Shown here in pieces: positions 47,376-64,000 of a stretch of 64,000 bases of DNA. Origin of the DNA: a virus (Duplodnaviria; Caudoviricetes); the IMG/VR virus record IMGVR_UViG_3300027708_000013; one strand, 5' to 3'. Under the pieces are notes generated by a model. That model was not told the DNA's origin, did no database searches, and saw only the letters and a list, made by a program, of their open reading frames with translations. Position 1 is the stretch's first letter. Each line of letters opens with the position of its first letter. The translations under genes and the position numbers were made by a program.

Positions 47376-47377
47376 TT

Positions 47378-47400: not shown

Positions 47401-47422
47401 GATTGGCTTTTAATGTTACAAT
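47394..47422 (+). promoter_or_regulatory. Sigma70-type promoter with extended -10
   Basis: TTGATT (47394-47399), 17 nt, TG-T-TACAAT (-10 at 47417-47422). Confidence 0.7.
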
Positions 47423-47428
47423 AGCAAT

Positions 47429-47743
47429 ATGACTGAACTAGAAAAACTCACTGCCGAAATACGCAGAGCCACCGATTATCACGTTAACAAAACAATACTG
47501 AGAGAAAAAATCCAAACAGATTTGCACGTGGCATACAACGGTGGATTATTTAAAGTTACACAAGAACTGTTGGCATTTGTTGCCACTTATCGTGCTGATA
47601 CCTTGTACATAGAAGATACATATCATAATCCAATCGAAGTTGACCGCGATGAGTTTCGTACTATTTGCGAACAGCACTATCAACAAGCAATGAATACCTG
47701 GCACCAACAACATGCAGAAATTAAACAACTTAGAAAAATCTAA
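47429..47743 (+). CDS. Hypothetical protein (104 aa)
   Basis: Clean ORF directly after the promoter, overlapping the next gene. Confidence 0.75.
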   Translation: MTELEKLTAEIRRATDYHVNKTILREKIQTDLHVAYNGGLFKVTQELLAFVATYRADTLYIEDTYHNPIEVDRDEFRTICEQHYQQAMNTWHQQHAEIKQLRKI

Positions 47744-48536: not shown

Positions 48537-49368
48537 AGAACCGCAAGGGTTCGTTACCTTTGCACAAAATACTGAAGAAGTGAATTACCTAGAACTGGCT
48601 TACTTGCAGTGCTTGAATGTCAAAGCCACGCAAAAGAACAACAGTTATGCTGTCATAGTGGACGCTGAAACTCGTGCTCTGGTAGAAGATCGCCATACCA
48701 AAACGTTTGATTACATCATTGATTTACCTGTGGATCACAACACCACCACTGCTAGATTTGCCAACGAGTATCAAGTGTTTGCTCTTACTCCGTTTAAAGA
48801 AACTGTCAAGTTGGAAAGCGATCTGTTGTTTACGCGAAGCATAGATCACTGGTGGACAGCATTTAGATTACGCGATGTTTGTCTCAGCACTGGTGCTAAA
48901 AATTATCGCGGCATACTATCCGGTGTAAGAAAATACCGACAGTTGTTTGATGAAAATAATTTACCCGATGTGTACAACGGTTTGATGTATTTTAGATATT
49001 CAAGACAGGCAGCGGATTTTTTCAACACAGCTGGTTTGATTTCACAGTGTTGGGATCTGTATCAAGAGCAATTGAAGAACTGTGCAGAAGAAACTCCCAG
49101 CACAGATGTGATATATGCCATTGCCGCATTGACAGTGGGCACAGATGCAGTTACTATGCCCAGTATGGACTTTATAAATTTTGTACACATGAAGTCAGGC
49201 TTCAACGGCTGGAGCGACACACAGAGTTGGTTGGACACAGTGGTGCATGAACGTGATGGCAATGTTGTACGTATCAACAACTTGAATCAATATCATCCAG
49301 TACACTACCATGACAAAACCTATGCCACCCAAGAGTTAACGGAATATTATGAATCAAGACGAACGTGA
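48523..49368 (+). CDS. GT-A fold glycosyltransferase-like protein (paralog of the upstream gene)
   Basis: FALTPFKETVKLESDLLF, DVYNGLMYF, STDVIYAIA, FVHMK, HYHDK. Confidence 0.65.
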   Translation: MSQHKEPQGFVTFAQNTEEVNYLELAYLQCLNVKATQKNNSYAVIVDAETRALVEDRHTKTFDYIIDLPVDHNTTTARFANEYQVFALTPFKETVKLESDLLFTRSIDHWWTAFRLRDVCLSTGAKNYRGILSGVRKYRQLFDENNLPDVYNGLMYFRYSRQAADFFNTAGLISQCWDLYQEQLKNCAEETPSTDVIYAIAALTVGTDAVTMPSMDFINFVHMKSGFNGWSDTQSWLDTVVHERDGNVVRINNLNQYHPVHYHDKTYATQELTEYYESRRT

Positions 49369-49708
49369 TTTTTGGGCACAAGTTGAAAGCCTGATCATCC
49401 CCATTCCTAAAGTTGAAATAGAATATAGATTGCACTACAATGAATTGGGCGAGATTGTTATGTGTAGTATGGCAGACCACCCTGAATCAAACCACTATGT
49501 TGTGGTATCAAAAGACAAATATGAACGATACTTTGATTATCGCATAGTTAAAGGACAATTAATAAAGATTGACCAAGCCAGCATTTATAGTGTAAAATTA
49601 ACTAAATCCAATACAGGCTACCGAACAGTAAAAAATCACGCTGGATTAATTATAGAGACTGGCGAATCATACTCGGAAACAGAATATTATGACCACAGAA
49701 ATCATTGA
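49349..49708 (+). CDS. Hypothetical protein (119 aa)
   Basis: Translationally coupled ORF within the operon. Confidence 0.7.
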   Translation: MNQDERDFWAQVESLIIPIPKVEIEYRLHYNELGEIVMCSMADHPESNHYVVVSKDKYERYFDYRIVKGQLIKIDQASIYSVKLTKSNTGYRTVKNHAGLIIETGESYSETEYYDHRNH

Positions 49709-50585
49709 CGTTGCAGATTTAGATTGCATCTTTTTAACCTACAATGAACCCAATCGAGAAATCAATTGGATTAGAGTACAAAACATGGTGCCTTGGGCCA
49801 AGCGAGTAGATGGAGTCAAAGGATCGGATGCTGCACACAAGGCAGCGGCAGCGGCCAGTGACACTGATCGCTTTGTATTAATTGATGGTGACAACATTCC
49901 TGACCCTGAATTTTTTAATCTACAACTAGAGCTAGACGATACCAATCGTGACTGTGTATTTAGATGGCGGGCTAAAAATCACATAAATGGATTGATGTAT
50001 GGCAACGGTGGTGTCAGCTGTTGGACTCGAGAATTTATATACAACATGCGTACCCACGAAGCCACGGATGGTTCTGCAGAGAATGATGTAGAGTTTTGTT
50101 TTTATCCTAATTACTGGGCCATGCACGATTGTTATTCGACTACCTATCCCAATGCCACACCTGAACAGGCATGGCGAGCTGGATTCCGCGAAGGTGTCAA
50201 GATGTGTTTGGATCGTGGCGCAAGGCCCAACATGCCCGAATTTGAAAGACGTGTACACAATCGCAACTATGATCATTTATGCATTTGGCAAACTGTGGGC
50301 GCCGATGTCGAAAACGGATCATGGGCAATATACGGAGCAAGACTTGGCACATACATGACCATGATAGAAAAGTGGAACTATCGAGATGTACAAGACTTTG
50401 ATGTATTGGCAAGATTATGGCAAAGTTTTAAACAAGACGGCCCAGATCAATGTGCCAGTGTGGGAGAAACCTTACGCACACGCTTGGGATTGCCTATTGT
50501 AGACATGTCGGCTGATGCCAGTAGATTCTTCAAACATCATTACAAATCGCAGTTTAGAAATACTGGTCCCATGGCAAGAGAATGA
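49689..50585 (+). CDS. GT-A fold glycosyltransferase-like protein
   Basis: IFLTYNEP, VDGVKGSDAAHKAAA, FVLIDGDN (DxD), NGLMYGNGG, AWRAGFREGVKM. Confidence 0.65.
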   Translation: MTTEIIDVADLDCIFLTYNEPNREINWIRVQNMVPWAKRVDGVKGSDAAHKAAAAASDTDRFVLIDGDNIPDPEFFNLQLELDDTNRDCVFRWRAKNHINGLMYGNGGVSCWTREFIYNMRTHEATDGSAENDVEFCFYPNYWAMHDCYSTTYPNATPEQAWRAGFREGVKMCLDRGARPNMPEFERRVHNRNYDHLCIWQTVGADVENGSWAIYGARLGTYMTMIEKWNYRDVQDFDVLARLWQSFKQDGPDQCASVGETLRTRLGLPIVDMSADASRFFKHHYKSQFRNTGPMARE

Positions 50586-50635: not shown

Positions 50636-51355
50636 ATGAATTTACTTATTAATGGAGGTTCGATTAGTCGTGGACCCACTAGCTGGCCGTACGCCATACA
50701 AAAAAAATTTAATAGTAATATTGTAAACCTATCACAAGCTGGTGCCGGTAATACTTATCTACACGAAACAACAATATCAGAGTTAGCACAAAGAACATAC
50801 GATTTAGTTATTGTACAGTGGGTACCTTTTATACGTATTGATTATAAAGTGCAAAATATTGAATTATTTAATAATACAATATTTACATCAAATTATCAAT
50901 ACAAACAGAATGACTGGCCTGGTAAAATAATTTATCCGATTAATGATCAAGATTATGTAGAAAAAGATTGGATCTTTGGTTGCGGATATGCTGTTAATCA
51001 AGACAGAGATCCAAATATAGTCAAGGTATTTGAAAATTATTATCAATATATTGGGTCATCAGAGCAAACATATCATTTATTAATAAAAATGATCTCCCTA
51101 CAAAGTTATTTAAAAGCAAACTCAATTCCTTATTTGTTTTGTTTTGGTAGAAAATTTAAAACATTTGACAGACATAGGCATTTGTTTAATCAACTTGACA
51201 TGAACCATATGTATGTCGATCAATTTTTACTTGATATTGCAGAAAACAACAACATGTGGGATGTCACCGATCAGTCCCACCCTAGCCCAGAAGCATATGA
51301 AATATACGCAAACTTATTGATAGAAAAAATCCAAGGACTGATGATACGCGAATGA
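50636..51355 (+). CDS. SGNH hydrolase-like protein
   Basis: NGGSIS, GAGNTYL, VIVQW and C-terminal SHPSPEAY. Confidence 0.6.
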   Translation: MNLLINGGSISRGPTSWPYAIQKKFNSNIVNLSQAGAGNTYLHETTISELAQRTYDLVIVQWVPFIRIDYKVQNIELFNNTIFTSNYQYKQNDWPGKIIYPINDQDYVEKDWIFGCGYAVNQDRDPNIVKVFENYYQYIGSSEQTYHLLIKMISLQSYLKANSIPYLFCFGRKFKTFDRHRHLFNQLDMNHMYVDQFLLDIAENNNMWDVTDQSHPSPEAYEIYANLLIEKIQGLMIRE

Positions 51356-52299
51356 AATTTGTTATAATACCAGCTGATAATTTTATATGGAATCAATCGG
51401 AGTTAATGTCGTTCTTGGTGAACAATCAAGAGAAAGATATACTGTTGTCAGTTAATAGCGAAGGATGTTGCCTCAATGCTATTGGTGTATACAAAATTTT
51501 AGATTTATTTAAATTTAAATCAGTGACTATATTATCTAATAACATTTTTGAATCTCATAACACCTATAACATAGTTAATGCTCAATCTTACTTTAAATTT
51601 TTTCAGATTGAAAAAGAATACAAAGAGTATCATGTATGGAATAACTCTAAGCTGTTTGGAGCTCTGTACAATCGACCAATATGGCATCGAATTGGTATTG
51701 CAAGTCACTTGTATGCAAATCACAGGACAGTCAGCATGGTAAATTTTCGAGCCAACCCACATGATGAGGACAGTCGAACACTTTTTGAACTACAGTCCTT
51801 GTTTGAAACAGATCCTGCATCGGTTGAGAACTTTATACAAACATATAAAAAATTTCCCGCACTGCTGAAAGAATTTGACGACTATACTGTTGGAGCCACA
51901 ACAACGCAACACACCGACCAATTGTGCAAATTATACACTGAGTTTTTAATTGATATTGTAGCAGAAACATTCACCAGTGGTAAAACTTTTTTTGCTACTG
52001 AAAAAACAGTAAGACCAATATTGCTTAAAAAACCATTTATTATAATGGGCCCAAAGTGCTTTCTAATACATCTACGGCAAATGGGATTTAAAACATTTAA
52101 TGACTATTGGAGCGAAGATTACGATGGATATGAACCAAAACAAAAATACAAAATGATATTAGAATCGATAGATAATATAGCATCTAAATCACAGCAAGAA
52201 ATAAGTTCCATGTACGCAGACATGCAAGAAATATTGGAACACAATTATAATTTGCTAATCAATAAAAAATTTCTAACTAAATTGACCTATGTTGGATAA
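51352..52299 (+). CDS. GT-B-like glycosyltransferase-related protein
   Basis: DIVAETF...FATEKTVRPILLKKPFIIMG...LRQMGFKTF..YWSEDYD...HNY, resembling GT10/GT47-type C-terminal nucleotide-sugar binding regions. Confidence 0.55.
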   Translation: MKFVIIPADNFIWNQSELMSFLVNNQEKDILLSVNSEGCCLNAIGVYKILDLFKFKSVTILSNNIFESHNTYNIVNAQSYFKFFQIEKEYKEYHVWNNSKLFGALYNRPIWHRIGIASHLYANHRTVSMVNFRANPHDEDSRTLFELQSLFETDPASVENFIQTYKKFPALLKEFDDYTVGATTTQHTDQLCKLYTEFLIDIVAETFTSGKTFFATEKTVRPILLKKPFIIMGPKCFLIHLRQMGFKTFNDYWSEDYDGYEPKQKYKMILESIDNIASKSQQEISSMYADMQEILEHNYNLLINKKFLTKLTYVG

Positions 52300-53674
52300 A
52301 AGCGTATTCATGTCAGCAGCCGAAGAGATGCAAGCAAAACTTGGCAACTCACTCTGCTTGGCCAAATGGCAACAAGTGAGCCTACATCTTCCCACCGGTC
52401 TCAATAATTCGTGTTACCATCCACCATTGCATGCCATAGATGCTGATGCTGTAAAACTCAATCCCAGTGCATTACACAACACCGAACACAAGAAACAGCA
52501 ACGCATCATCATGTTGAAAAATGAACAACCTGCAGAGTGTAGTTACTGTTGGAACATAGAACGACATGATCAATTAAGCGACAGACATTATAGGTCAGGA
52601 GAACCGTGGGCCGCAGAACACTACGAAGCAATCAAAAACTCTCGAGGAGATGAAGATGTTGTACCCAGTTATGTGGAAGTTAATTTTAATCATGCTTGTA
52701 ACCTTGCTTGCAGTTATTGTAGTCCGCAGTTTAGTTCAACATGGCAAGCGGAAGTGGATCGATGGGGAGGGTACCCAACTACAACAATTCATAACGACCC
52801 TAGTCATTTTACTGGTCGTAATAGGCCAATCCCGGCCAGTCATGAAAATCCTTACGTAGAGGCATTTTGGTCATGGTGGCCAGAACTGTACCCCAAACTG
52901 CGACACTTTAGAATGACCGGTGGTGAACCATTGATGGACCGCAACACTTATCGGGTATTTGATTATGTGTTGGCCATGCCAAAACCAGATCTACATTTAA
53001 ATGTCACCAGCAACTTCAGCGTGGACCAGGCGTTGTTTGAACGATATTTGGACTATGTAAAACAGTTATGTGCAATACAGATAGAACATTTCATGCAGTA
53101 TGTCAGCTTGGATTCTGGCAACATCAAACATGCAGAATATATCAGGCATGGTCTCAACATGAATAGATTACATGAATATGTCAACAGATATTTGACAGAA
53201 GTGCCCCACCGTAACAGTCTGACATTCATTATCACCATGAATAATTTAAGTGTGCTGGGCCTACAACGTCAATTGCAATGGATACTGGATTTAAGAAAAC
53301 GTCACAGCACCACATATCAACGTGTTTGGTTTGATACTCCCTTGCTACGCACACCCACCTGGCAAAGCCTACAGATACTGCCACCTGTATACACAGGTGT
53401 GTTGGAACGTGTGTCCGACTGGATGGAACTGAACTTGGAAACAGAGGAAGATCCATTCCAAGGTTTTAAAGACTACGAAGTACAACGCCTACGCAGAGAC
53501 ATAGCATGGATGCAGGAAGGTTGCAAGTTAGACCCCGACTATGTTAAACTACAACGTGCAGACTTTTATCGGTTCTTCAATGAACACGACAAAAGGCGTC
53601 AAACAGATTTTTTAACTACTTTTCCCGAAATGCGTGAATTTTGGAAAGAATGTGAATACCATGCCAAGAATTGA
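52289..53674 (+). CDS. Radical SAM protein with N-terminal twitch/SPASM domain
   Basis: CLAKW...SCYHP...CSYCW; CNLACSYC; MTGGEP; VTSN; SLD. Confidence 0.92.
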   Translation: MLDKSVFMSAAEEMQAKLGNSLCLAKWQQVSLHLPTGLNNSCYHPPLHAIDADAVKLNPSALHNTEHKKQQRIIMLKNEQPAECSYCWNIERHDQLSDRHYRSGEPWAAEHYEAIKNSRGDEDVVPSYVEVNFNHACNLACSYCSPQFSSTWQAEVDRWGGYPTTTIHNDPSHFTGRNRPIPASHENPYVEAFWSWWPELYPKLRHFRMTGGEPLMDRNTYRVFDYVLAMPKPDLHLNVTSNFSVDQALFERYLDYVKQLCAIQIEHFMQYVSLDSGNIKHAEYIRHGLNMNRLHEYVNRYLTEVPHRNSLTFIITMNNLSVLGLQRQLQWILDLRKRHSTTYQRVWFDTPLLRTPTWQSLQILPPVYTGVLERVSDWMELNLETEEDPFQGFKDYEVQRLRRDIAWMQEGCKLDPDYVKLQRADFYRFFNEHDKRRQTDFLTTFPEMREFWKECEYHAKN

Positions 53675-55022
53675 CAATGAGACCGACTTAGAATACAAAA
53701 AAAGAGTAATTGACATCAAGAGCGAAAGCTTTTGTGCGGCCAAATGGTACAACGCCACCATATGGTTGGGATCAGGTCAAACCACCAGTTGTCATCATCC
53801 ATTACCACATGCCATAGATATCGACGAGATTCGAACCAATCCCAAGGCCATACACAACACACAACGGAAAAAAATGGAACGCGAACAGATGCAACGCGGA
53901 GAACGTCCCGCAGGTTGTGAGTACTGTTGGAAGATTGAAGACATCGGGCGAGACAACATAAGTGATAGAGTTTACAAAACAGTTATATATTCAGATGAGG
54001 ATTTGAGAAATGCATTCGCTAGGCCAGCCAGCACAGATGTGGATTTACAAACGCTTGAAATTGCTTTTGATCGCACATGCAATTTTGGGTGTAGTTACTG
54101 TAACCCTGCTTTCAGCAGCACTTGGGTTAAAGATATTGACACCATGGGTGCTTATACCGGCCTCACTTCAGACGGTAGGAATCATTACACTCATAATCAT
54201 GCAAGTAGTCAGCTTTATCGCTTTGGTGAAAGTAATCCTTACGTTGAAGCGTTCTTTGCATGGTGGGAGTCAGATCTCCATCGCACACTTCAGGAGCTTC
54301 GATTAACTGGTGGAGAGCCACTGATGTCGGGCGACACCTGGAGATTATTGGAATGGTTCAAGAACAACAACAGTCGAGTCAACCCTGACATGCGGTTTGC
54401 CATCAACAGCAATCTTGGCGCCAAACCAGAATTGATTGATCGACTTGTTGCGGCCGCCCACAGCATCAAGCATTTTCACCTGTACACCAGTAACGAAGCA
54501 ACAGGTGTACAAAGCGAATACATTCGTGATGGGCTGGTATGGGATACATGGACTGCCAATGTGGAACAGGTGTTGCGTGATGCTGACCTAGAAGGATTTC
54601 ACATTATGTGTACCATCAACGCATTATGCTTGGATAGTTTAACTGATTTTTTGGATCAATGCCTGGAGTGGAAAGACCTATGTGGCCGAGACTTCCCTAC
54701 ATTCTCACTAAATATATTACGCTTTCCAAGTTTTCAAAGTCCTTTAGTGTTGCCAGATGACATACGCAACGGCTATAAACTTAAATTACAAGCATGGTTC
54801 AACACAAATAAAAACAATCAGTTATTACATCAATTTGAAACCAATCAAGTACAACGCTTGATAGACTATTTAGATGTAGTCAAAACTCCGCATGTGGGTG
54901 CAGCAGAACAAAGCGTATTACAACAGGACTTTAAGAAATTTTATACACAATACGACCAACGCAGAGGCAAAAACTTTACAACAACATTTCCCAACCTAGC
55001 AGAATGGTATGACTCGTTCTAA
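53661..55022 (+). CDS. Radical SAM protein with N-terminal twitch/SPASM domain (tandem paralog)
   Basis: CAAKW...SCHHP...CEYCW; CNFGCSYC; LTGGEP; INSN. Start moved to ATG 53661. Confidence 0.92.
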   Translation: MPRIDNETDLEYKKRVIDIKSESFCAAKWYNATIWLGSGQTTSCHHPLPHAIDIDEIRTNPKAIHNTQRKKMEREQMQRGERPAGCEYCWKIEDIGRDNISDRVYKTVIYSDEDLRNAFARPASTDVDLQTLEIAFDRTCNFGCSYCNPAFSSTWVKDIDTMGAYTGLTSDGRNHYTHNHASSQLYRFGESNPYVEAFFAWWESDLHRTLQELRLTGGEPLMSGDTWRLLEWFKNNNSRVNPDMRFAINSNLGAKPELIDRLVAAAHSIKHFHLYTSNEATGVQSEYIRDGLVWDTWTANVEQVLRDADLEGFHIMCTINALCLDSLTDFLDQCLEWKDLCGRDFPTFSLNILRFPSFQSPLVLPDDIRNGYKLKLQAWFNTNKNNQLLHQFETNQVQRLIDYLDVVKTPHVGAAEQSVLQQDFKKFYTQYDQRRGKNFTTTFPNLAEWYDSF

Positions 55023-55749
55023 ATATAAAACACTACTAGTTTCGGGGTGCAGTTTTACACATAATGACTGTGAAGAGCATTTTGCTTGGGCAAATGATTT
55101 AGCAGTGTGGACTGGAATGAATATTATTAACCTAGCCATACCGGGTGCTGGCAACACTCACATTGCCAATAGCATCATGCTATATATTGAACAACACAAT
55201 TTAGATCCTGCTGACACATTAGTTATGGCCATGTGGTCGGGAGTGGCACGTATAGATTGGATAACAGACAAGTCGTTATCAAATTTTAAAAATGCATACC
55301 CATTTACTTACAATTATGATGGTTACAATGAGTTGGTTCTTGGCGGTAGTTGGTGGCACCCCAAACGCAGAACGCATATTGAGCAAACACTAGTTGAATA
55401 CAGCAAATATCAAAGCTCGCACAGTTTTGCATTACACAGTTGGTTATCAATGTCAAATTTGTCTAACTACCTAACAGTAAAAGGATTTGAATTCTATTAC
55501 TCATCGATAACAGATATCAAGAATACCAAAGAGTTATGGGTCGATTACAATAAAGAATTAACAGACTTGAATTTATCGATTGATAAAACAAAATGGATAG
55601 TACCATGCTTAGGTGACTACTGTAGAGATCTAGATTTATTGCAAGATGATAAGTTCCATCCCAGTATGCAAGGACACGAAACTTGGACTAAAGCAATAGC
55701 AATGCCATTTTTGGCTGAAAGAAATATATTGACATGGCAGACAACATAG
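55009..55749 (+). CDS. SGNH hydrolase-like protein
   Basis: SGCSFT, GAGNTHI, AMWSG..R.D and C-terminal DKFHPSMQGH. Confidence 0.65.
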   Translation: MTRSKYKTLLVSGCSFTHNDCEEHFAWANDLAVWTGMNIINLAIPGAGNTHIANSIMLYIEQHNLDPADTLVMAMWSGVARIDWITDKSLSNFKNAYPFTYNYDGYNELVLGGSWWHPKRRTHIEQTLVEYSKYQSSHSFALHSWLSMSNLSNYLTVKGFEFYYSSITDIKNTKELWVDYNKELTDLNLSIDKTKWIVPCLGDYCRDLDLLQDDKFHPSMQGHETWTKAIAMPFLAERNILTWQTT

Positions 55750-57050
55750 AAGATTATTACAAAAATTACAACTACGGTGCCCGCAAGCCCATTTATATCA
55801 AAGAATCAGAATTAACACCAGATCAACTTGATAGACTAGTAAAAAGCGATGAGTTCTGCATGATCCCTTGGATACACATGCATGCCTTCCCGGATGGTCG
55901 TGCTTATCCCTGTTGTTTAAGTGAGCCCGATCATCCTGTTGGCAATCTCAAAACACACACCATGCGTGAAATATGGAATGATGCACCGCTGAAACAAATG
56001 CGAGTCAACATGCTGAACAACGTTCCATCAAAAGAATGTACTAAATGTTACGAACAAGAGAAAAGTCGCTTGTTTAGTATGAGAGAAAGTGCTAACAAAA
56101 ACTTTGGACATCATATTGGCCTAGTGGACAACACACGGCCCGATGGTCAGTACGATGATTTTAAATTACGCTACTACGACATTCGCTTCAGTAACCTTTG
56201 CAATTTTGCCTGCAGAACTTGTGGTGGTATCTTCTCTAGCAATTGGCACAAAGACGAAAAGGCCGCAGGATGGGATCCGAAGCATCCACAGATAATGTAT
56301 GCCGGACGAGACAAAGGTGACATGTGGCAACAGATGCAAGAGCACATTCCTCACTTGGAACAAATCTACTGGGCCGGCGGCGAACCCCTGATCATGGAAG
56401 AACATTGGAAAGTGTTAGACGAGCTGGTTCGACGTGAAATGTTTCATGTACGACTAATTTATAACACAAACTTCAGTGAACTCAAATTCAAAGGTCGTGA
56501 TGTACTTGAGATGTGGAAACTGTTTGACTGTGTCAGCATAGGTGCCAGCCTTGATGGTAGTTATCAGCGTGGAGAGTACATACGCAAAGGGCAAAACTGG
56601 AAAGAAACTGTAGAGAACCGTGAGCGTATGTTGAAGATTTGTCCCAACGTGGATTTCTATGTATCGAGTACAGTCAGCATGATGAACGTGTTGCACATCA
56701 CAGACTTTCATAGAGAATGGGTGGATCTGGGACTGTTACGCCCAATGGATTGGAACATAAACATACTACAACATCCACATCGCTATCGTGTAGATGTACT
56801 GCCTGAACCGTTAAAATTGCAAGCACAAGATAAAATTCAAACACATTTAGAATGGTTACGTCCCTTGGATACATTATCCCGTGCCACTTCGGGGTACGAA
56901 GGTGTAGTCAACTTTATGATGGCACAAGACAGCACACATGAATTACCTAGTTTCTTTAAAACTAATAATCTAATAGATCAAGTACGCAGTGAAGATTTCT
57001 TTGCAGTGTTTCCAGAATTAAAGGCGATACAACAATATGACCCTTCCTGA
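55734..57050 (+). CDS. Radical SAM protein with N-terminal SPASM domain
   Basis: CMIPW...GRAYPCC...CTKCY; CNFACRTC; WAGGEP; YNTN; SLDG. Confidence 0.92.
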   Translation: MADNIEDYYKNYNYGARKPIYIKESELTPDQLDRLVKSDEFCMIPWIHMHAFPDGRAYPCCLSEPDHPVGNLKTHTMREIWNDAPLKQMRVNMLNNVPSKECTKCYEQEKSRLFSMRESANKNFGHHIGLVDNTRPDGQYDDFKLRYYDIRFSNLCNFACRTCGGIFSSNWHKDEKAAGWDPKHPQIMYAGRDKGDMWQQMQEHIPHLEQIYWAGGEPLIMEEHWKVLDELVRREMFHVRLIYNTNFSELKFKGRDVLEMWKLFDCVSIGASLDGSYQRGEYIRKGQNWKETVENRERMLKICPNVDFYVSSTVSMMNVLHITDFHREWVDLGLLRPMDWNINILQHPHRYRVDVLPEPLKLQAQDKIQTHLEWLRPLDTLSRATSGYEGVVNFMMAQDSTHELPSFFKTNNLIDQVRSEDFFAVFPELKAIQQYDPS

Positions 57051-58254
57051 CACAATTTGTATGCTACCATGGATCAGTGTGGAGGCCAGTCCCATGGGCA
57101 CTGTACGGCCTTGCTGTTTGGCTCATGATGAGATCCCAGATGAGCAAGGAGTCAAGTACGATTTAAACAACACCGATCTTGAAACTGCGTATCACAGTGA
57201 GTATATGCAGGAGTTACGTAGGCAATTTCGTGCAGGTGCAAAGCCTGCCACCTGTACACGTTGTTGGGACGAAGAAGCCGCTGGCCGAGCCAGCAAAAGA
57301 ATACACACACAGATAAGACTAAAGGAATTATACCCAAAAGTGGACTGGGCAAACGATGACCCGGATCAACTGTGGTTTGTGGATTTGAAACTGGGAAACA
57401 TTTGCAATCTCAAATGTCGTATATGTGGCTCGTGGAGTAGCAGCAAGTGGGCTGAAGAGGAAATGGCCTACTTGCCCGCAGGCGTAGACAAAAAATCACA
57501 CATAGCCTATACCTGGTTACGACAGGGTGCATGGCCACGCAAGACTGCTACATTCTGGGACAACATGAGGTCATTGTTGCCCAATATACGGTATATAGAA
57601 TTCACCGGCGGTGAACCCTGGCTGATTGAAGAACATTTTGATCTTTTAAAGTATGCAGTGTTGCGTGGACACAGCAAGCATATTGACATTCATTACAACA
57701 CCAATGCCACACAAGAACCCTCACAAGAACATTTTAATTTATGGGACGAGTTCGGCCGTGTGGATATTGCGTTTAGCGTTGACAATGTTGGGGATAGATT
57801 TGAATATGAACGCTACGGTGCAAAATGGGATCAAGCAAATACAATAGTTGACAAAATACATGGTTTTAGAACATTTCGCCACGGTTCTATTACTACACAG
57901 TTATGTTTCACTATTAATATACAGAATGTCTACTACTTAGATGAGCTACTTGCCTGGGCCGACACAAAAAAGTTTGGTAGTGTGTACTTTAACATGTTGC
58001 ACAGTCCTGACCATATGAGCATACAGAACATGACACCAGCTGCACAAGAATTAGTGTTGAACAAACTCAAAACCGTATTTTGGACCAGCAGTAAATACCA
58101 ACAAGAAATTGACAGTGTAATTCGATTTATAGAACTTGGCTCGGGCAGTGATGGTCAAGAGTTTTTAAGACAGATGCAACAGACCGATGCTTATCGCAAG
58201 CAGTGTTTCGCGGATACACACCTAGAAATAGCCAAGGCAATGGGATATAAATAA
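57037..58254 (+). CDS. Radical SAM protein with N-terminal SPASM domain
   Basis: CMLPW...GTVRPCC...CTRCW; CNLKCRIC; FTGGEP; YNTN; SVD. Confidence 0.92.
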   Translation: MTLPDTICMLPWISVEASPMGTVRPCCLAHDEIPDEQGVKYDLNNTDLETAYHSEYMQELRRQFRAGAKPATCTRCWDEEAAGRASKRIHTQIRLKELYPKVDWANDDPDQLWFVDLKLGNICNLKCRICGSWSSSKWAEEEMAYLPAGVDKKSHIAYTWLRQGAWPRKTATFWDNMRSLLPNIRYIEFTGGEPWLIEEHFDLLKYAVLRGHSKHIDIHYNTNATQEPSQEHFNLWDEFGRVDIAFSVDNVGDRFEYERYGAKWDQANTIVDKIHGFRTFRHGSITTQLCFTINIQNVYYLDELLAWADTKKFGSVYFNMLHSPDHMSIQNMTPAAQELVLNKLKTVFWTSSKYQQEIDSVIRFIELGSGSDGQEFLRQMQQTDAYRKQCFADTHLEIAKAMGYK

Positions 58255-59318
58255 TGCATCTTCAGCTTTGGGACATGTCATATTATTCCGGGGATTTAGC
58301 CTATTATAATTACCCGTGCGACAAAGAATTTGGTGATTTGTTATTTTTTTTAAAAAGAATAAAGACAAGGAAAAAAATTCACCTGACAGACATAATCCAT
58401 TGGAAAATGAAATATCCCTCAAAGGGATATGATGTATATATAATCTGTGCTTTTGGGGAATTTGTCAATGAAGAGTTTTTAAATCTAATAGATCAAGACA
58501 AGTACTTCAATAACAAGATGGTAATTTTATTAACTTCGCAGTATTGGGAGCCGAATAAATTCAACACAATAAAAGTATTTTATTTAGAACATTTACAAAC
58601 AATAATTAGATTTTTTAAACCAACAGAATCAAAAAATATTAAACAAAGAATCTACACACACGGAATATTATCTAGACGTACAACATTTCATAAAAGTTAT
58701 ATCTTGATAAATCTATTAGAACGTTTTTCAAAGGATCTACAGTATACATTTTGTAACGAGCCCGAGCACGAATATAGTTTAGAAAAATTGAGTCAAACTC
58801 TAGATATGTACTATCCTGGATTAACGCCAACCGATGCTCAATTAAATTTATTGACATATTTACACAACAATCCAACTGTAGTTGAGGGGCATCAGTGGTC
58901 GGTTGACAACAGGATTTATACAGAATCTCAACTGATTTGGACCACAGAGTCTATATTTTTATCTAGGCATAATGCCCCTACTGCATACCTAACTGAAAAA
59001 ACAATTAAATCACTGGTCAGTAGAACTCCGTTTATTATAGTAGGACAAAAACACAGTTACGCTAGAATAAAATCGTTGGGGTTCCTGGACTATACAGATG
59101 AATTCAACATACAGTTTGATGATTTATCCGATCTTGATCGTTTCGCAGGTGTAATTAATTTAATGGATACGTTTGATTTCGCTAGTTTTTTAACATCATC
59201 AACAGCACAAGAAATGGCAGATTATAATTATCATTATTTTTTCGATGGATTTGTTGATCATGCTAATCGACAAAATGAAGAAAAAATAGAACACATACTG
59301 GAATTTGTCAATGCATAA
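58254..59318 (+). CDS. GT-B-like glycosyltransferase-related protein
   Basis: IWTTES...YLTEKTIKSLVSRTPFIIVG...IKSLGF...ADYNY; same family as 51352. Confidence 0.5.
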   Translation: MHLQLWDMSYYSGDLAYYNYPCDKEFGDLLFFLKRIKTRKKIHLTDIIHWKMKYPSKGYDVYIICAFGEFVNEEFLNLIDQDKYFNNKMVILLTSQYWEPNKFNTIKVFYLEHLQTIIRFFKPTESKNIKQRIYTHGILSRRTTFHKSYILINLLERFSKDLQYTFCNEPEHEYSLEKLSQTLDMYYPGLTPTDAQLNLLTYLHNNPTVVEGHQWSVDNRIYTESQLIWTTESIFLSRHNAPTAYLTEKTIKSLVSRTPFIIVGQKHSYARIKSLGFLDYTDEFNIQFDDLSDLDRFAGVINLMDTFDFASFLTSSTAQEMADYNYHYFFDGFVDHANRQNEEKIEHILEFVNA

Positions 59319-60600
59319 ACCCACCACTTTATGTATGGCTCCTTGGACACACACTTATCTAAGCCCACAAACAGAAAGAAGAATGTGCTGTGCATCAAGA
59401 GAACCAGCACAAAATTTTGAGCAATACATAGACACAGCTGCTGGCACAGGCGAATATCGACCCATTACTTTAGACCAACACTGGAACAGTGAACACATGC
59501 GTAGTGTGAGACGTAGAATGATGGCAGGCGAAACCCTACCCGAGTGTACTGTGTGCAATGATCAACTGCTCAACACAGATGTTTACCGCAGTTATTTCAA
59601 CAACATGTTTGGCAATAAGTATGAGTATGCAATGGCAAACACAGATGCTGGGGGATACACCACTGTAAAACCAGTATCGTGGGATTATAGATTTAGCAAT
59701 CTTTGTAACTTCAAATGCCGTATGTGCGGTGACATGTTGAGCAGTAGTTGGGAAACAGAACAACGCCAACACAACATGATTGACTACACAAATCCAAAAA
59801 ACAATTGGATGCGGCCCGAAGTTAAACAACAGATCTCTCAGTTTCAAGACACACAAATTGAAGCAGAATTCAGTGAGGCAGTGGAACAGCATAGAATAGA
59901 AGAAGTATATTGGGTAGGTGGCGAACCCCTGATGTATGAACAGCATTGGCGGTACATGAAAAGAATAATAGAATTGGGAGACGGAAAAAATGTTTACGCT
60001 AGATACAATACAAATCTCAGTAGGGTTGATCATCGTGGTGTTAATCTCTATCGGGACATACTGGCTGGGCTACGTGACTGGCAAATCTGTGCAAGCATCG
60101 ATGGCACGGGACGAATTGGAGAGTATATTAGATCAGGTCTTGATTTTACTCAATGGCTTGCAAACATCCGCCAAGGAATTGAGATCCAACGTCATAGCCG
60201 CCAAATCCGTTTGGACTTCACTCTTACTACACCAGGACTCTTTGAAGTACAAAAGATACAATCGCTCGCAAAAGAACTCGGAGTAGATGTATTAGCCAAA
60301 GTGGTTTTTAGTTTCACACCAGACATTGTCATGAGCCCGTTGGCCTTACCTCGAGAGTTATTACATCCTTGGGTGGACGAAATCATTGCCGAGTTAAAGC
60401 CCGGTGCCCTACAGGATATACTTGTCCAGCTGAAAACTAGACCCACCTTCGAGGAACAGTGGCCAGATACCTATTCAGCAGGACTCAAAAAGGGCAAACG
60501 CCGCATAGAAACACTTGAATCTATCCGACGAGACGTGTATACTATGAAGGATATACTGGCAGAACGACCTGCGGTATTGACATGGTGGAATTCAATATGA
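59311..60600 (+). CDS. Radical SAM protein with N-terminal SPASM domain
   Basis: CMAPW...RRMCC...CTVC; CNFKCRMC; WVGGEP; YNTN; SIDG. Confidence 0.92.
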   Translation: MHKPTTLCMAPWTHTYLSPQTERRMCCASREPAQNFEQYIDTAAGTGEYRPITLDQHWNSEHMRSVRRRMMAGETLPECTVCNDQLLNTDVYRSYFNNMFGNKYEYAMANTDAGGYTTVKPVSWDYRFSNLCNFKCRMCGDMLSSSWETEQRQHNMIDYTNPKNNWMRPEVKQQISQFQDTQIEAEFSEAVEQHRIEEVYWVGGEPLMYEQHWRYMKRIIELGDGKNVYARYNTNLSRVDHRGVNLYRDILAGLRDWQICASIDGTGRIGEYIRSGLDFTQWLANIRQGIEIQRHSRQIRLDFTLTTPGLFEVQKIQSLAKELGVDVLAKVVFSFTPDIVMSPLALPRELLHPWVDEIIAELKPGALQDILVQLKTRPTFEEQWPDTYSAGLKKGKRRIETLESIRRDVYTMKDILAERPAVLTWWNSI

Positions 60601-61682
60601 CAATGAATAAAGTTCGAATAGTACTACGCAATCCCCTGAATCATCAAGAACAGATGGACTACACTATTGTTGCCAACGACTCTGAACTGGCACAGGATTG
60701 GATTTCAGCTTTAAAATTATTACTACAGAGTGGAAAACTGCTGGAGAAGAACTTTTGCTTCATGGGCTTCCCCCGAACCGCCAGAAACTTGGATTATTTG
60801 TGTGGGGAATTAAATCAACATGTAACGACAATTAATGATTTTTTCTTTGATTATCAAATTGCGGAAACATTCTCTCCCGACTCAGTGCGTGGACGTGACT
60901 ATGCTGAAAATGGTATCAACCATGCAGTAATGAATCGTCTACACAATCACTTTGAACAATTGCAAGGCACAGTGGATGACCTAAGCACCTATTACCGAAA
61001 CGCAAATTATGACGTCAAGTATGCCATACGTCAGTTAAATAATCTTTGTCACGAAATGGAAGGTTTGATACTGAGTCAGCGTAAGTTAACAACTGACCCT
61101 TACTGGGTACGTCCCAGTCAGATCACTACATTCTTAAATGCTGACAGGTACGATTTAAAAGATGCACATAGATCGGGGTTTGTTGCCAACGGATATGATC
61201 GAGTACAGGGTGGTGTTTACATGCACTGGACACAGATAGGCAAGACCCTGTTTGAAGTGTTCCGTGATGAATCGGCTCCACGATTGACAGCCGCAACATG
61301 CGAAGCAGTTACAGAATTGAAATATTACTCGGGCGAGTTTGACGTAGAGTGGGGAAATGATGTTGTGCGTAACAGTGGGCACCCGTGGCATGACAAAGAG
61401 CAAAGTCATTTTGAGGCTTGGTTAATTGAAAATGGAAGAGATTCCAGAGATGCTAAACTTAGTCTAGGATACCTGCCCTTGGGACAGGTTGACTTACTGG
61501 GTAGTTTTGGTACTATGGATTATCGAACAATTTGGAATATATTGTCCTCACACTTGGACATTTACAAGATAGAAGTAGACGGTGTAGCACAGACATTTGA
61601 CTATTGCTGGAGTGATGCCACTTACCAACAACAGCAAATCAACATGATGAGGCCTGGGTATGATTATAGTAGCCGGGGGTGA
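60597..61682 (+). CDS. Hypothetical protein (~361 aa)
   Basis: ATGA-coupled to the upstream radical SAM gene; no motif recognised. Confidence 0.75.
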   Translation: MTMNKVRIVLRNPLNHQEQMDYTIVANDSELAQDWISALKLLLQSGKLLEKNFCFMGFPRTARNLDYLCGELNQHVTTINDFFFDYQIAETFSPDSVRGRDYAENGINHAVMNRLHNHFEQLQGTVDDLSTYYRNANYDVKYAIRQLNNLCHEMEGLILSQRKLTTDPYWVRPSQITTFLNADRYDLKDAHRSGFVANGYDRVQGGVYMHWTQIGKTLFEVFRDESAPRLTAATCEAVTELKYYSGEFDVEWGNDVVRNSGHPWHDKEQSHFEAWLIENGRDSRDAKLSLGYLPLGQVDLLGSFGTMDYRTIWNILSSHLDIYKIEVDGVAQTFDYCWSDATYQQQQINMMRPGYDYSSRG

Positions 61683-62478
61683 CAGTTTTGTATATGGTGC
61701 AGAATTAAAAGACTGTGCAGGAAAACCCAGTGAATCAACTTGGCCTGCACTGCTATCAAAAAATATCAACGCTGAATATACATGTGTTGCTGAAAGCGGA
61801 AATGCCAACAACGCCATTGCACGCCAATTAATGACTGCTTGCGAAGCACGTAAACATCAAGACTTGTTTGTAATAGTTCAATGGACATTCACACACAGGT
61901 ATGAATTCAGATTCAACTACAACACTCAACGCAGATCCTCGCCTTGGCACAGTATCAATTTATGGGATATAGTGGACGATCCAGCCAGTTTAAAAAAAGA
62001 GTTTGTTACTTTTGATTCCGCAGTATTTGATGCTCATGTAAACAATAAATTAATGCTGGATAATTCTGGGCTGACAGATTTTGCCAAAACATTTTACAAG
62101 CATGTGGGCAACAACGAGTATTATGAAACCTATACCAGTTTAAAAGAAATACTGTTCTTACAACAATATTTAGAAATAAATAAAATACCGTACTTGTTTG
62201 CACCAGCTGACATTTATTTAGAAAATAGTGATGCTTATCTTAGACACAGTGCAGATGTCACAATGCAGTCAATTTATAATCAAATTGATTGGAGTCGTTG
62301 GTACTCGTTTCCTTGCGGAACAGGAGCAGATCAAACAACAACTCCAAGAGGTTTTTACCAGTGGGCAGTAGAGAATAAATACCCTATAGGCACCACACAT
62401 CCATTAGAACCGGCCCATCAAGCAGCCGCCAACTTAATACAGGAGAAATTCAATGAACTGGTTACGAAATCTATATAA
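61660..62478 (+). CDS. SGNH hydrolase-like protein
   Basis: GGDSFV (block I GDS), GNANNAI, IVQWT...R.E and C-terminal THPLEPAH. Confidence 0.7.
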   Translation: MIIVAGGDSFVYGAELKDCAGKPSESTWPALLSKNINAEYTCVAESGNANNAIARQLMTACEARKHQDLFVIVQWTFTHRYEFRFNYNTQRRSSPWHSINLWDIVDDPASLKKEFVTFDSAVFDAHVNNKLMLDNSGLTDFAKTFYKHVGNNEYYETYTSLKEILFLQQYLEINKIPYLFAPADIYLENSDAYLRHSADVTMQSIYNQIDWSRWYSFPCGTGADQTTTPRGFYQWAVENKYPIGTTHPLEPAHQAAANLIQEKFNELVTKSI

Positions 62479-62554
62479 CAGAATTGTACTAGAACGACGT
62501 TATCGTAAGAAGTTAAAAGAGTTGCGTCGAAGAGATCCGTTTATTTACAAATGA
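62453..62554 (+). CDS. Small basic protein, 33 aa (below the ORF-track cut-off)
   Basis: AGGAG RBS at 62441-62445; MNWLRNLYNRIVLERRYRKKLKELRRRDPFIYK; its stop overlaps the next ATG (ATGA). Confidence 0.7.
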   Translation: MNWLRNLYNRIVLERRYRKKLKELRRRDPFIYK

Positions 62555-63219
62555 TTAACCGTATATTAGCAGTGGGTGACAGTTTTACCTACGGTGACGA
62601 ACTAACCGATCTTGCCACAGCTTACCCTGCTTTACTGGCACAACAATTTGGTGCACAAGTTGATAATCAAGCTAGGCCAGGATCAGGCAACACACGAATG
62701 GTTAGAACTGTTGTTGATCATGTGGGTCGTAACAGTCCTGTGGCAATTGATCGAGCTGATTTGATCATCATTGGTTGGAGTAGCCCCGGAAGAATAGAAT
62801 TTGCAGATGCCACTGGCGTTTACGACATATGGCCTGGATATTCAGGCAACATGTTTACCCGCGAAGGTCAGTCCTGGCGACTGGAACTAATAGACTACAT
62901 AAGCAAATATCATGATCCACAATATTTGTACCAACAATATTTGCTAAATGTCATCATGTTGCAGAATTTTTTAAAAAGTCACAATCAACGTTATGTTATG
63001 TTGAACACAGTCAGCAACGAATATTATCACAACACTTACTATTCGCAATTTGCACATCTAACACAATTAGTAGATGCAGAACATTATTTAGGATGGCCTC
63101 GAGAGGGCATGGCAGAATGGACTCAAAGTTGTCCGCGTGGTGCCGGTGGGCATTTTTTAGAAGAAGGTCACCAACAAGTGGCAGAAAAAATATATCATCA
63201 TGTCAATTCTAGGAGTTAG
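62551..63219 (+). CDS. SGNH hydrolase-like protein
   Basis: VGDSFT, GSGNTRM, IIGWS...R.E and C-terminal GHFLEEGH. Confidence 0.7.
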   Translation: MINRILAVGDSFTYGDELTDLATAYPALLAQQFGAQVDNQARPGSGNTRMVRTVVDHVGRNSPVAIDRADLIIIGWSSPGRIEFADATGVYDIWPGYSGNMFTREGQSWRLELIDYISKYHDPQYLYQQYLLNVIMLQNFLKSHNQRYVMLNTVSNEYYHNTYYSQFAHLTQLVDAEHYLGWPREGMAEWTQSCPRGAGGHFLEEGHQQVAEKIYHHVNSRS

Positions 63220-64000
63220 TGCCGGCTTCCACGATGCCTCGGTGGCAGTGGTAGATCCTGCAGGTGAAATCTTATTTGCTGCTCACAGTGAACGTTATAG
63301 TAAAATAAAGAACGATGCTGACATACATCGTGACTTGATAGCTGAGTTGGGGCAATGGAACATCGATCATATTGCATACTATGAACGTCCGTGGCTAAAA
63401 CAACTACGACAGTTGTACTCAGGGCAGGGCATTGAGTGGAACAAACTAACTGCTGGCCAAATTGTAAAACAACAACTATGCGGACTTTTTAAAGATGTTC
63501 CCATCAGTACACACAGTCATCATTTAAGTCATGCAGCCGGTGGATTTCAAACCAGTATATTTAATCGAGCCACGGTGGTGGTGATTGATGCAGTAGGTGA
63601 GTGGGACACCATCACCATATGGGCGGCGGAATATGTCAATGGTCAAGCACGATATAAAAAACTTTGGAGTCAACAATATCCGCACAGTATAGGATTGTTT
63701 TACACAGCGGCCACAGCCGAAGTGGGCTTACGGCCCATGGAAGATGAGTACGTGCTGATGGGCATGAGTGCATATGGTAAGCCTGTGGTAGTATCAAAAA
63801 TGAAAACGGATTTGGTAAGCAATCAGTCTTTGATAACATTCCAACAAAACCTACACACCGGATTACCTTCAAGTTATGCAGACTATTACAATGGTGTGGA
63901 TATAGCCGCATCAGCACAGGCGTTGTGCGAGGAATTGATTTACTCCGTGATGCAACGTGCCAAACAGTTTGACTGGAGCGGAAATCTAGTGTATACTGGT
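63200..64000 (+). CDS. Carbamoyltransferase, NodU/CmcH/TobZ family (truncated; absent from the ORF track)
   Basis: Manual translation: MSILGVSAGFHDASVAVV...AAHSERYSKIKND...YYERP...HHLSHAAGG...VIDAVGEWDT...SIGLFY...EYVLMGMSAYG...DIAASAQ. Confidence 0.93.
   Translation, partial: MSILGVSAGFHDASVAVVDPAGEILFAAHSERYSKIKNDADIHRDLIAELGQWNIDHIAYYERPWLKQLRQLYSGQGIEWNKLTAGQIVKQQLCGLFKDVPISTHSHHLSHAAGGFQTSIFNRATVVVIDAVGEWDTITIWAAEYVNGQARYKKLWSQQYPHSIGLFYTAATAEVGLRPMEDEYVLMGMSAYGKPVVVSKMKTDLVSNQSLITFQQNLHTGLPSSYADYYNGVDIAASAQALCEELIYSVMQRAKQFDWSGNLVYTG

Follow-up and report, generated by a model that had tools for sequence, protein, structure and literature searches.

An overlapping gene array behind the tail-fibre genes

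The 64,000-nucleotide stretch of the Caudoviricetes record IMGVR_UViG_3300027708_000013 analysed here (the window) ends in an operon that encodes five radical S-adenosylmethionine (SAM) enzymes, RS1–RS5, together with SGNH-like proteins, glycosyltransferase (GT)-like proteins, a 33-residue peptide and a carbamoyltransferase. Fourteen open reading frames (ORFs) run from position 50636 past the window end at 64000, each overlapping the next by 1–41 bases, in the order SGNH, GT-like, radical SAM, radical SAM, SGNH, radical SAM, radical SAM, GT-like, radical SAM, 366-aa protein, SGNH, peptide, SGNH and carbamoyltransferase (plus strand, as are all features below unless stated). This is the order given in a preliminary description made from the letters of the window, and the 14 genes are translationally coupled and part of one conserved operon. 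Genes past the window end, and the full-length carbamoyltransferase, were taken from a 154 kb lake-metagenome contig from JGI (locus L081) which is 99.98% identical and adds 9.2 kb beyond the window.

The source is a freshwater T4-like jumbo phage of ~350 kb. T4-like jumbo phage hallmarks in the window are a gp20 portal, a baseplate protein, gp25 and gp6 homologs and fibre genes, and the same 64 kb encode gp46- and gp47-like proteins and a baseplate-region protein of 4321 aa; related IMG/VR contigs, rated complete, have lengths of up to 329–357 kb. GenBank contains no phage with close DNA similarity, and a near-identical cultured phage was not found. Exact short contigs of the phage, scattered over 46–64 kb, occur in two lake metatranscriptome runs, but these are assembled contigs in which DNA carry-over is possible and are therefore not counted as expression.

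To place the operon among its relatives, the window proteins were mapped onto 80 related IMG/VR loci recruited with one of the radical SAM enzymes. Protein identity across these contigs is 50–91% and the gene order is shared, a recurrence which shows that the arrangement is not due to chance. The conserved unit begins at ~47429, directly behind the tail-fibre genes, and extends at least 2.8 kb past the window end, so the start at 50636 that was first proposed cuts the unit and is too narrow. The conserved order runs through a Ser/Thr-rich 298-aa protein, a 104-aa protein, two GT8-like proteins, a 119-aa protein, a GT-A-like protein, a variable position and RS1, and then through a variable position, RS2, a variable position, RS3, RS4, a variable position, RS5, the 366-aa protein, an optional SGNH-like protein, the 33-aa peptide, a second optional SGNH-like protein and the carbamoyltransferase. 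The core defined by the 80 loci thus consists of three GT-like genes, five radical SAM orthogroups, the 366-aa protein, the peptide and the carbamoyltransferase, with the SGNH-like genes and two genes for 315- and 354-aa proteins (with a GT10-like lead) as variable add-ons. The operon lies behind fibre genes throughout.

The gene upstream of the unit (45138–46469) encodes a tail-fibre or virion structural protein whose C-terminal part is an intramolecular chaperone of the Peptidase_G2 type (Pfam Peptidase_G2; PHROG virion structural and tail fibre families), and is also found upstream in relatives. It is followed by the 298-aa protein (46479–47375), which is rich in Ser, Thr, Gly and Asn, directly precedes the operon in nearly all 80 loci and has no family match in Pfam or PHROG scans; we consider it a candidate, fibre-like acceptor. 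A terminator-like hairpin of 14 pairs followed by a T-rich tail (47372–47406) lies between this gene and the operon, and is the only signal to rise above background in the sigma-70 and terminator scans. Two small conserved proteins, placed by synteny, have 104 aa (47429–47743; the first gene of the conserved unit) and 119 aa (49349–49708). The T4 late-promoter consensus TATAAATA occurs twice in the window, at 14031 and, inside the operon, at 58246, which is rarer than chance. The second copy (58246–58253) stands directly before the start of the accessory 354-aa gene, too near the ATG to judge.

Five ancient radical SAM enzymes of one N-terminal-twitch family

RS1 (52289–53674; E = 2.3e-86; orthologs 58–91% identical), RS2 (53634–55022; E = 6e-92), RS3 (55734–57050; E = 1.2e-120), RS4 (57037–58254; E = 3.5e-98) and RS5 (59305–60600; E = 3.5e-85) are N-terminal-twitch radical SAM enzymes that score 286–403 bits over positions 1–398 of the NCBIfam model NF033640 (N_Twi_rSAM), the curated cut-off of which is 170 bits. 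The Pfam SPASM match lies N-terminal of the Radical_SAM match in these proteins. The CxxxCxxC cysteines (C156, C160 and C163) and four N-terminal cysteines (C42, C61, C102 and C105) do not vary among 26 sequences, the five paralogs included, and a GGEP motif is common to the five, with GGE invariant. The five SPASM/twitch enzymes recognised at the outset are therefore borne out, as is the count of nine radical SAM enzymes in the whole window, six of the N-terminal-twitch family and three ordinary ones. The sixth family member is encoded outside the operon (10134–11258, minus strand; NF033640 E = 1.6e-87, 294 bits) and adjoins the gp46/gp47-like genes.

RS1–RS5 are only 23–26% identical to one another while each orthogroup retains 50–91% identity across loci, and by this measure they are five old, individually retained orthogroups and not recent duplicates. 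RS3 and RS4 form a single ORF of 837–848 aa in four related phages (L019, L020, L021 and L025; ~9983–12529), a Rosetta-stone hint that the two enzymes act as a pair. An AlphaFold2 (AF2) model of RS3 (mean confidence, pLDDT, 89) shows the usual partial barrel followed by helices only. Its closest structures are tied, with Z scores of 12.3 for SkfB, 12.2 for BlsE, 12.0 for anSME, 12.0 for CteB and 11.4 for viperin; Foldseek places viperin first (E = 6e-6), and SuiB is also among the fold neighbours. Since these neighbours are tied, the predicted fold of RS3 does not separate sugar, peptide and nucleotide substrates, and the analogy with BtrN and NeoN drawn in the preliminary description reduces to one of fold class.

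The family is widespread in phages of this kind. At least 6,700 protein clusters matched one N-terminal-twitch enzyme, and only phage-like metagenome proteins were among the matches of the homolog search. Complete relatives carry 6–13 copies each above the family cut-off, scattered over the genome, as compared to none in 14 control genomes. Our literature search found no paper that names or characterises the NF033640 family.

Three further observations concern radical SAM genes. The three ordinary, SPASM-order enzymes (5597–6601, 6595–7431 and 9181–10146, minus strand) are interleaved with recombination nuclease genes, within a minus-strand group (5597–13074) in which radical SAM genes and an SGNH-like gene alternate with gp46-like (7424–9205) and gp47-like (11258–12277) genes. 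The cultured Vibrio phage K566 (OZ196521.1, 161.5–168.3 kb; locus L088) has a run of four N-terminal-twitch-like radical SAM genes together with hypothetical genes, and no carbamoyltransferase, peptide, 366-aa homolog or other operon gene in that neighbourhood; it offers a possible second route to the family in culture. Finally, RS2 is called as two genes of 365 and 91 aa in the JGI contig (~1113–2472). The sole blastn difference between that contig and the window is a 2-base gap, which presumably accounts for the split call and may be an assembly error or a natural frameshift variant.

A microprotein is predicted to bind the carbamoyltransferase acceptor pocket

The last gene of the window (63200–64000, cut by the window end) encodes a class III (NodU/TobZ/GdmN-type) carbamoyltransferase, with matches in Pfam, PHROG and PDB-sequence searches. 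The portion within the window matches Carbam_trans_N at E = 8e-23; the full-length 491-aa enzyme matches both Carbam_trans_N (Kae1-like) and Carbam_trans_C (YrdC-like) in Pfam, phrog_1601 at E = 2.8e-94, and NovN, GdmN and TobZ at E values of 1e-49 to 1e-33. In an HMMER alignment its metal ligands H107, H111, D130 and D294 correspond to H133, H137, D156 and D333 of GdmN, and its general base H11 to H27; H11 and the metal ligands are invariant in 38 orthologs. Domains, E values and conserved ligands together identify it at the sequence level as a genuine TobZ/GdmN-type enzyme, in agreement with its first annotation.

One of the most conserved genes of the operon is also its smallest. The ORF at 62453–62554 encodes a basic 33-aa microprotein ending in ...RKRDPFIYK, with Tyr32 invariant. 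Wherever it occurs (69 loci) it has exactly 33 codons, and its product has no Cys, is very basic and contains no hydrophobic segment. Residues E14, Y17, R18, D28, P29, F30 and Y32 are invariant while codons vary freely, with for example four Pro and four Arg codons in use; this codon turnover under invariant residues argues that the peptide is a translated and strongly constrained microprotein. Lys33 is replaced by Arg in 2 of 60 variants. In Pfam at E = 10 the peptide has no match to DUF5989 or any other family. It is found directly upstream of the carbamoyltransferase, with or without an intervening SGNH-like gene, in 69 of 69 loci, its stop overlapping the next start, and 63 of the 69 also have SGNH-like genes, which usually border the peptide gene on each side.

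The peptide had at first been treated as a bystander, a view that neither this conservation nor structure prediction supports. Modelled together, the 491-aa enzyme and the peptide reached a complex score of 0.64, as compared to 0.00 for the best of three controls; the mark applied to this score is passed by 58 of 80 solved complexes and by 2 of 110 mismatched pairs. The runs share at least 70% of contacts, and the pLDDT of the partner is 55 or higher, with 78 in the two good runs. The helix face of the peptide (residues 9–24) and its tail (residues 29–33) contact residues 10–11, 74–76, 131–132, 161–173, 179–180 and 207–223 of the enzyme. When mapped onto GdmN, these contacts fall on loop 1 with the general base (H11, equivalent to H27), the end of helix 1, loop 2 beside the iron ligand D130 (equivalent to D156), helix 2 and loop 3, the elements which form the crystallographic acceptor pocket (PMC9633730). 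The peptide is thus predicted to bind in the acceptor pocket of the carbamoyltransferase, the result expected if the tail Tyr (or Lys33) is carbamoylated. No other step of the pathway has support as specific as this modelled pairing.

The end of the operon has a counterpart in a cultured phage. The best GenBank match of the carbamoyltransferase, at 45% identity, is in Ralstonia phage RsoM2USA (MG752970.1, 344 kb), where the gene order is SGNH-like (203), a radical SAM gene whose product is 53% identical to RS2 (RsoM2USA_202), SGNH-like (201), a 36-codon ORF, SGNH-like (200) and carbamoyltransferase (199). The 36-codon ORF is unannotated (11026–11136 of locus L089), fills the 109 bp gap between genes 201 and 200 and ends in RKQDPFIYK. 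Genes 199–203 are listed as hypothetical proteins and the module is not discussed in the description of the phage. Its presence there shows that the end module with one radical SAM type is portable and accessible in culture.

A tiny, highly conserved peptide in an operon with five twitch/SPASM-type radical SAM enzymes is the classic signature of a ribosomally synthesised and post-translationally modified peptide (RiPP), and the peptide might accordingly be the substrate of, or a scaffold for, the whole operon. The radical SAM enzymes would then cross-link, epimerise or oxidise its residues, the carbamoyltransferase and GT-like proteins would decorate it, and SGNH-like hydrolases would process or release it, yielding a fixed glycopeptide, either cofactor-like or bioactive. 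A fixed product would suit the invariant core, which recalls PqqA and MftA, the predicted complex puts the peptide in the acceptor pocket of the carbamoyltransferase, a NodU-like enzyme is known to modify a RiPP precursor near its C-terminus (PMC13174530), SkfB, CteB, SuiB and anSME are among the fold neighbours noted above, and an RS2-type enzyme travels with the peptide module in RsoM2USA. Against this, the peptide lacks Cys, Pfam and NCBIfam recognise no RiPP recognition element (RRE)-type domain in the radical SAM enzymes (the RS3 model being helical after the barrel), and the operon contains no protease or exporter. Enzymes of the N-terminal-twitch family also occur without the peptide, as the sixth copy 50 kb away in the window, the four in K566 and the 6–13 scattered copies in relatives show; the fixed neighbour of the peptide is the carbamoyltransferase and not a radical SAM enzyme, and sugar-nucleotide genes lie nearby. 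On balance we regard a RiPP-like role as unlikely.

SGNH-like paralogs, probably of the DUF6071 type

Four SGNH-like proteins are encoded in the operon and a fifth elsewhere in the window, as originally counted. Paralog 1 (50636–51355; GGS...DQSH) is a variable accessory present in a minority of loci, and paralog 2 (55009–55749; GCS...DKFH) is a rare accessory; paralogs 3 (61660–62478; GDS...THP) and 4 (62551–63219; GDS...GGH; DUF6071 E = 4.7e-9) flank the peptide gene. The fifth (12322–13074, minus strand) lies outside the operon. Pfam support for the operon four is weak, with DUF6071 matches of E = 5e-9 to 5e-4 that pass the cut-off only for the genes at 50636 (27.5 against 27) and 62551 (36.7), and with GDSL families below their cut-offs. 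A family hidden Markov model (HMM) built on the paralogs scores the operon four at E = 1e-37 to 4e-80 and the fifth at E = 5.8e-20; its seed alignment also includes a sixth paralog, the product of a 230-aa gene just past the carbamoyltransferase. All five window paralogs retain the block I Ser and the block V His, and two have DxxH; a G-x-N block is present, and a PDB profile search gave a weak match of the family to a GDSL protein (E = 0.034). By these sequence criteria the four operon genes are clear paralogs, probably of the DUF6071 type.

Glycosyltransferase-like genes and the sugar context

The three core GT-like genes precede the radical SAM genes. Two are GT8-like (GT-A) paralogs that share an N-terminal F(A/V)xNTxxVDY motif: the first (47712–48536) has a DTD motif and no database match of its own in Pfam or PDB-sequence profile searches, and the second (48523–49368) has a degenerate ESD motif and no Pfam match, its ortholog profile giving a weak match of ~110 residues to glycogenin-1 (residues 20–134, E = 0.02). 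The third (49689–50585; 298 aa), a GT-A-like protein with a DGDN motif, is the most conserved of the GT-like genes (69–81% identity in 35 aligned orthologs), matches Glyco_tranf_2_3 below the cut-off (E = 0.0018) and has a neighbouring Atlas cluster automatically named GT2-like.

The two accessory genes within the operon had been described as GT-B-like, an assignment for which no family match was found. The 315-aa protein (51352–52299) and its distant paralog of 354 aa (58254–59318; 19% identity) share a TEKT..PFI..G motif and have no match in Pfam, NCBIfam, PHROG or PDB sequences; Atlas feature scores link them to GT10 (GT-B) clusters at 0.78–0.79 (0.79 for the 315-aa protein), which falls short of the level that counts. 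Among structural kin of the 315-aa protein are fusions to nucleoside diphosphate (NDP)-sugar epimerase/dehydratase or methyltransferase domains. The 354-aa protein has no ortholog at >80% coverage in the other loci, partial matches being weak (23–26%), and PDB-sequence profiles for two GT-like families and for the 315/354-aa family gave nothing useful. Both proteins are GT candidates only, and the total of five GT-like genes claimed for the window can be upheld only in part. A 386-aa protein encoded in the JGI contig (13745–14905, minus strand) contains 'VTTEKNS', resembling the TEKT motif, and may join this putative family.

The remaining core gene (60582–61682) encodes the 366-aa protein, which is modelled (AF2 pLDDT 87, 42 orthologs) as a cyclophilin-like barrel with a four-helix insertion. 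Foldseek returned nothing from the PDB at E <=0.001, and a VIA-wide comparison gave cyclophilin-like barrels and helix bundles at Z scores of 7–9, the range of common arrangements; its AlphaFold database relatives are uncharacterised and there was no usable Atlas match. The family comprises 609 clusters. One representative, from a metagenomic relative, is fused to an RS3-like radical SAM enzyme and lies between Laminin_G_3 proteins, which ties the family to radical SAM enzymes and to surface-type phage proteins; other members are fused to a 410-aa domain without known role, next to radical SAM genes. A distant relative (674–2113 of locus L084), extended at its N-terminus by a coiled-coil-like segment, is encoded by itself on a contig of bacterial appearance, where its neighbours are NfeD and purine biosynthesis genes, so the family is not restricted to radical SAM operons.

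Sugar metabolism genes follow the operon. Directly beyond the carbamoyltransferase, the JGI contig encodes the 230-aa SGNH-like protein and then a fusion of adenosine phosphosulfate (APS)-kinase-like and nucleotidyltransferase domains. After four genes without assigned function come, 5–7 kb downstream, a PseC-like sugar aminotransferase (E = 6.5e-50) and a short-chain dehydrogenase/reductase (SDR) resembling dTDP-glucose/NDP-sugar 4,6-dehydratases (E = 1.4e-32), followed by ThyX; the aminotransferase, the SDR and two of the four intervening genes are kept in two complete relatives. Four complete relatives encode no SAM synthetase or flavodoxin, functions which the host presumably supplies together with sugar-1-phosphate nucleotidyltransferase. 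The same region contains a 677-aa protein (14904–16937 of the JGI contig) with repeats of the motif IDTAEFDFSWHPDP.EP.YSY.FPTQHQ, which has relatives of 43–65% identity and no family match.

No operon protein has a hydrophobic stretch of transmembrane strength, and no flippase, polymerase or exporter was recognised among them; with soluble proteins only, the product would be built in the cytoplasm. This bears on the possibility that the product is a free small molecule, such as a metabolite of the aminoglycoside type, or that the operon remodels a glycan of the host envelope during infection, for instance as a block to superinfection. The combination of twitch radical SAM enzyme, aminotransferase and TobZ-type carbamoyltransferase does resemble aminoglycoside tailoring, and a published cyanophage annotation labels similar genes 'antibiotic synthesis genes' (PMC12801897). 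Operon scans, however, returned no scaffold synthase, cyclitol synthase, exporter, flippase, polymerase or membrane protein, and the operon strictly keeps its place behind the fibre genes. Known aminoglycoside clusters, moreover, feature neither GT8-like enzymes nor a peptide carrier. We consider both possibilities improbable.

Hypermodification of DNA, in which the operon would decorate hydroxymethylated pyrimidines (as 5-carbamoyloxymethylcytosine or glucosylated hydroxymethylcytosine) to evade host nucleases, appears more doubtful again. A published phage TobZ-like enzyme carbamoylates 5-hydroxymethylcytosine (5hmC) (PMC8670742), T4-like phages commonly glycosylate DNA, a thymidylate-synthase gene lies ~8 kb downstream and the other radical SAM genes of the window sit among recombination genes. 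The published enzymes nevertheless co-occur with a ThyA-like hydroxymethylase, dCMP deaminase and MazG-type genes, and carbamoyltransferases flanked by glycosyltransferases were found only on unmodified contigs (PMC8670742). In the relatives of the present phage ThyA is canonical (360 bits, with the PFNVASY motif carrying the Asn of uracil-specific enzymes), and ThyX occupies the same position here, which indicates a thymidylate synthase and not a dCMP hydroxymethylase. The attachment of the operon to fibre genes in 80 loci, and the prediction that the acceptor pocket holds the peptide tail, also speak against a DNA substrate. The exchange of ThyX (20003–20669 of L081) for canonical ThyA in complete relatives (8615–9526 of L086; 7971–8882 of L087) is in itself a non-orthologous replacement within one phage group.

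A model for cytoplasmic glycan tailoring

Glycan-type tailoring is the best-supported interpretation of the operon and rests on context: the GT8-like and GT-A-like genes upstream, the O-carbamoyltransferase, the SGNH-like paralogs, the PseC-like aminotransferase, 4,6-dehydratase-like SDR and APS-kinase-like gene downstream, and the lack of a membrane protein all favour a sugar-type product. What the analysis shows is the gene content and its conservation, the intact motifs, the absence of membrane helices and a modelled peptide–enzyme contact; substrate, product, target and timing are inferred. We propose that the operon assembles and decorates a glycan-type structure with soluble enzymes only, on an acceptor in the cytoplasm, and that the SGNH-like proteins use a carbamoyl-tyrosine carrier, a reading to which we give a probability of about 0.5. 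The likeliest acceptor is the fibre-like, Ser/Thr-rich protein encoded upstream, or else a different virion protein. Of the preliminary proposal of glycan or small-molecule tailoring, the idea of a coherent, conserved phage pathway stands, as gene content is strongly correlated across relatives and catalytic motifs are intact, and none of the outcomes named there as refuting it was observed; the BtrN/NeoN analogy extends to fold class only.

In the proposed pathway, NDP-sugars from the host would be partly remodelled by the phage 4,6-dehydratase-like SDR and PseC-like aminotransferase, and then moved onto the acceptor by the GT8-like pair, the GT-A-like enzyme and the optional GT10-like proteins. 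Each of the five N-terminal-twitch enzymes would abstract a hydrogen at a defined sugar position, leading to oxidation, epimerisation, deoxygenation or C–C/C-methyl chemistry, with the single auxiliary cluster as electron sink. The TobZ/GdmN-type enzyme would make carbamoyl-AMP and load the carbamoyl group onto Tyr32 in the PFIYK tail of the peptide; SGNH-like (DUF6071) paralogs would take it from this aryl carbamate onto their own Ser and deliver it to hydroxyls or amines of the glycan, in what would amount to a soluble counterpart of the DltX/DltB/DltD and PatA/PatB acyl-tyrosine shuttle. The downstream APS-kinase-like/nucleotidyltransferase fusion may supply a further activated group. The most specific form of the model, in which the peptide is a free cytoplasmic carbamoyl-Tyr carrier loaded by the TobZ-type enzyme and unloaded by SGNH-like (DUF6071) proteins while the N-terminal-twitch enzymes act as position-specific editors of the glycan on a virion glycoprotein, we offer tentatively, with the odds somewhat against it.

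Several observations weigh against this interpretation. The RS3 model stands equally near to sugar or nucleotide enzymes and to peptide maturases. Sequence support for the GT assignments is weak (E = 0.02 at best) and lacking for two of the GT-like genes, and the four complete relatives lack a sugar-1-phosphate nucleotidyltransferase (NTP_transferase). No T4-type late promoter TATAAATA was found before 47429, which leaves late timing of the operon unproven. As for the carrier, in six loci no SGNH-like gene could be detected near the peptide and carbamoyltransferase genes; of the three complex runs, one gave 0.00, on a scale that expresses only how confident the model is in its own prediction; and the tail, P-F-I-Y-K-stop, has the F-x-Y and invariant Tyr of the FXYXXF motif and lacks its XXF. 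TobZ-type enzymes, moreover, normally carbamoylate the final substrate directly, and a carrier is not obviously needed.

If the model is correct, the peptide would belong to the first soluble, MBOAT-independent acyl-tyrosine shuttle and provide the first enzymatic aryl-carbamate donor, extending the acyl-tyrosine principle from membrane envelope acylation to a soluble carrier and carbamoyl transfer. The N-terminal-twitch family abounds in aquatic jumbo phages and includes no member with a known reaction, and a conserved operon that combines its enzymes with sugar enzymes is a concrete place to seek new radical carbohydrate chemistry. An elaborate fibre coat would matter for host recognition, for how well virions withstand enzymes and grazing, and for phage engineering. 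New here are the core defined by synteny, the gene fusions, the interface mapped onto the GdmN pocket, the weakening of the 5hmC alternative and the RsoM2USA module, which makes the question testable in a cultured phage.

Comparison with known systems

The earlier statement that no characterised phage pathway has this composition holds in the literature searched, and each part of the operon can be set beside a different known system. The NF033640 model describes an N-terminal four-Cys auxiliary-cluster domain followed by a CxxxCxxC barrel, as in the six window enzymes. It is a sequence model only and membership assigns no function; what differs here is the presence of five ancient orthogroups in one operon.

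Virus-encoded soluble glycosyltransferases and sugar-nucleotide enzymes decorate structural proteins in the cytoplasm in mycobacteriophages, Mimivirus and chloroviruses, and the phage operon resembles these virion glycosylation systems in its soluble, virus-encoded sugar enzymes. We know of no case among them that includes radical SAM enzymes, a carbamoyltransferase or a peptide carrier.

A similar arrangement around the carbamoyltransferase is found in the cyanobacterial saxitoxin genes sxtI–sxtJ–sxtK–sxtL, in which a carbamoyltransferase gene stands beside a tiny ORF (sxtK, 165 nt) and a GDSL-type gene (sxtL) (PMC2679770). The phage operon differs in having no SxtJ homolog, and its peptide has no Pfam match. 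A PFIY ending like that of the phage peptide is one that we take SxtK/DUF5989 to have.

The carbamoyltransferase itself shares the Kae1-like and YrdC-like domains, the four metal ligands and the general-base His of TobZ, GdmN and NovN (PMC9633730). At 491 aa it is shorter, lacks the C-terminal dimerisation domain of GdmN, and is predicted to hold a peptide tail in its acceptor pocket in place of an antibiotic. Two relatives act on other acceptors. The phage TobZ-family enzyme that carbamoylates 5hmC in DNA is paired with a ThyA-like hydroxymethylase (PMC8670742), whereas the neighbours here are SGNH-like, radical SAM and GT-like genes. The NodU-like StdF carbamoylates the epsilon-amine of Lys in a conserved C-terminal motif of a ribosomal peptide (PMC13174530); StdF is fused to a peptidase and targets Lys, whereas the invariant residue here is Tyr32 and the phage operon has no YcaO or MNIO partners.

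The proposed carrier step can be compared with the DltX/DltB/DltD and PatA/PatB systems. In DltX and the tail of PatA the acyl group is bound to an invariant Tyr within the motif FXYXXF (FIYANF in NgPatA), from which it is handed to the Ser of an SGNH protein, which acylates the glycan (PMC12148441). The likeness lies in a microprotein or tail with an invariant Tyr in F-x-Y next to SGNH-like proteins. The phage peptide, in contrast, is soluble and very basic and not a membrane protein, and it ends one residue after the Tyr. Pfam and NCBIfam scans of the operon proteins returned no MBOAT or AT3 family; the proposed loader would instead be the ATP-dependent carbamoyltransferase, and the cargo would be carbamoyl. 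By this analogy the peptide may act like the DltX/PatA shuttle, yet it is not a member of that class.

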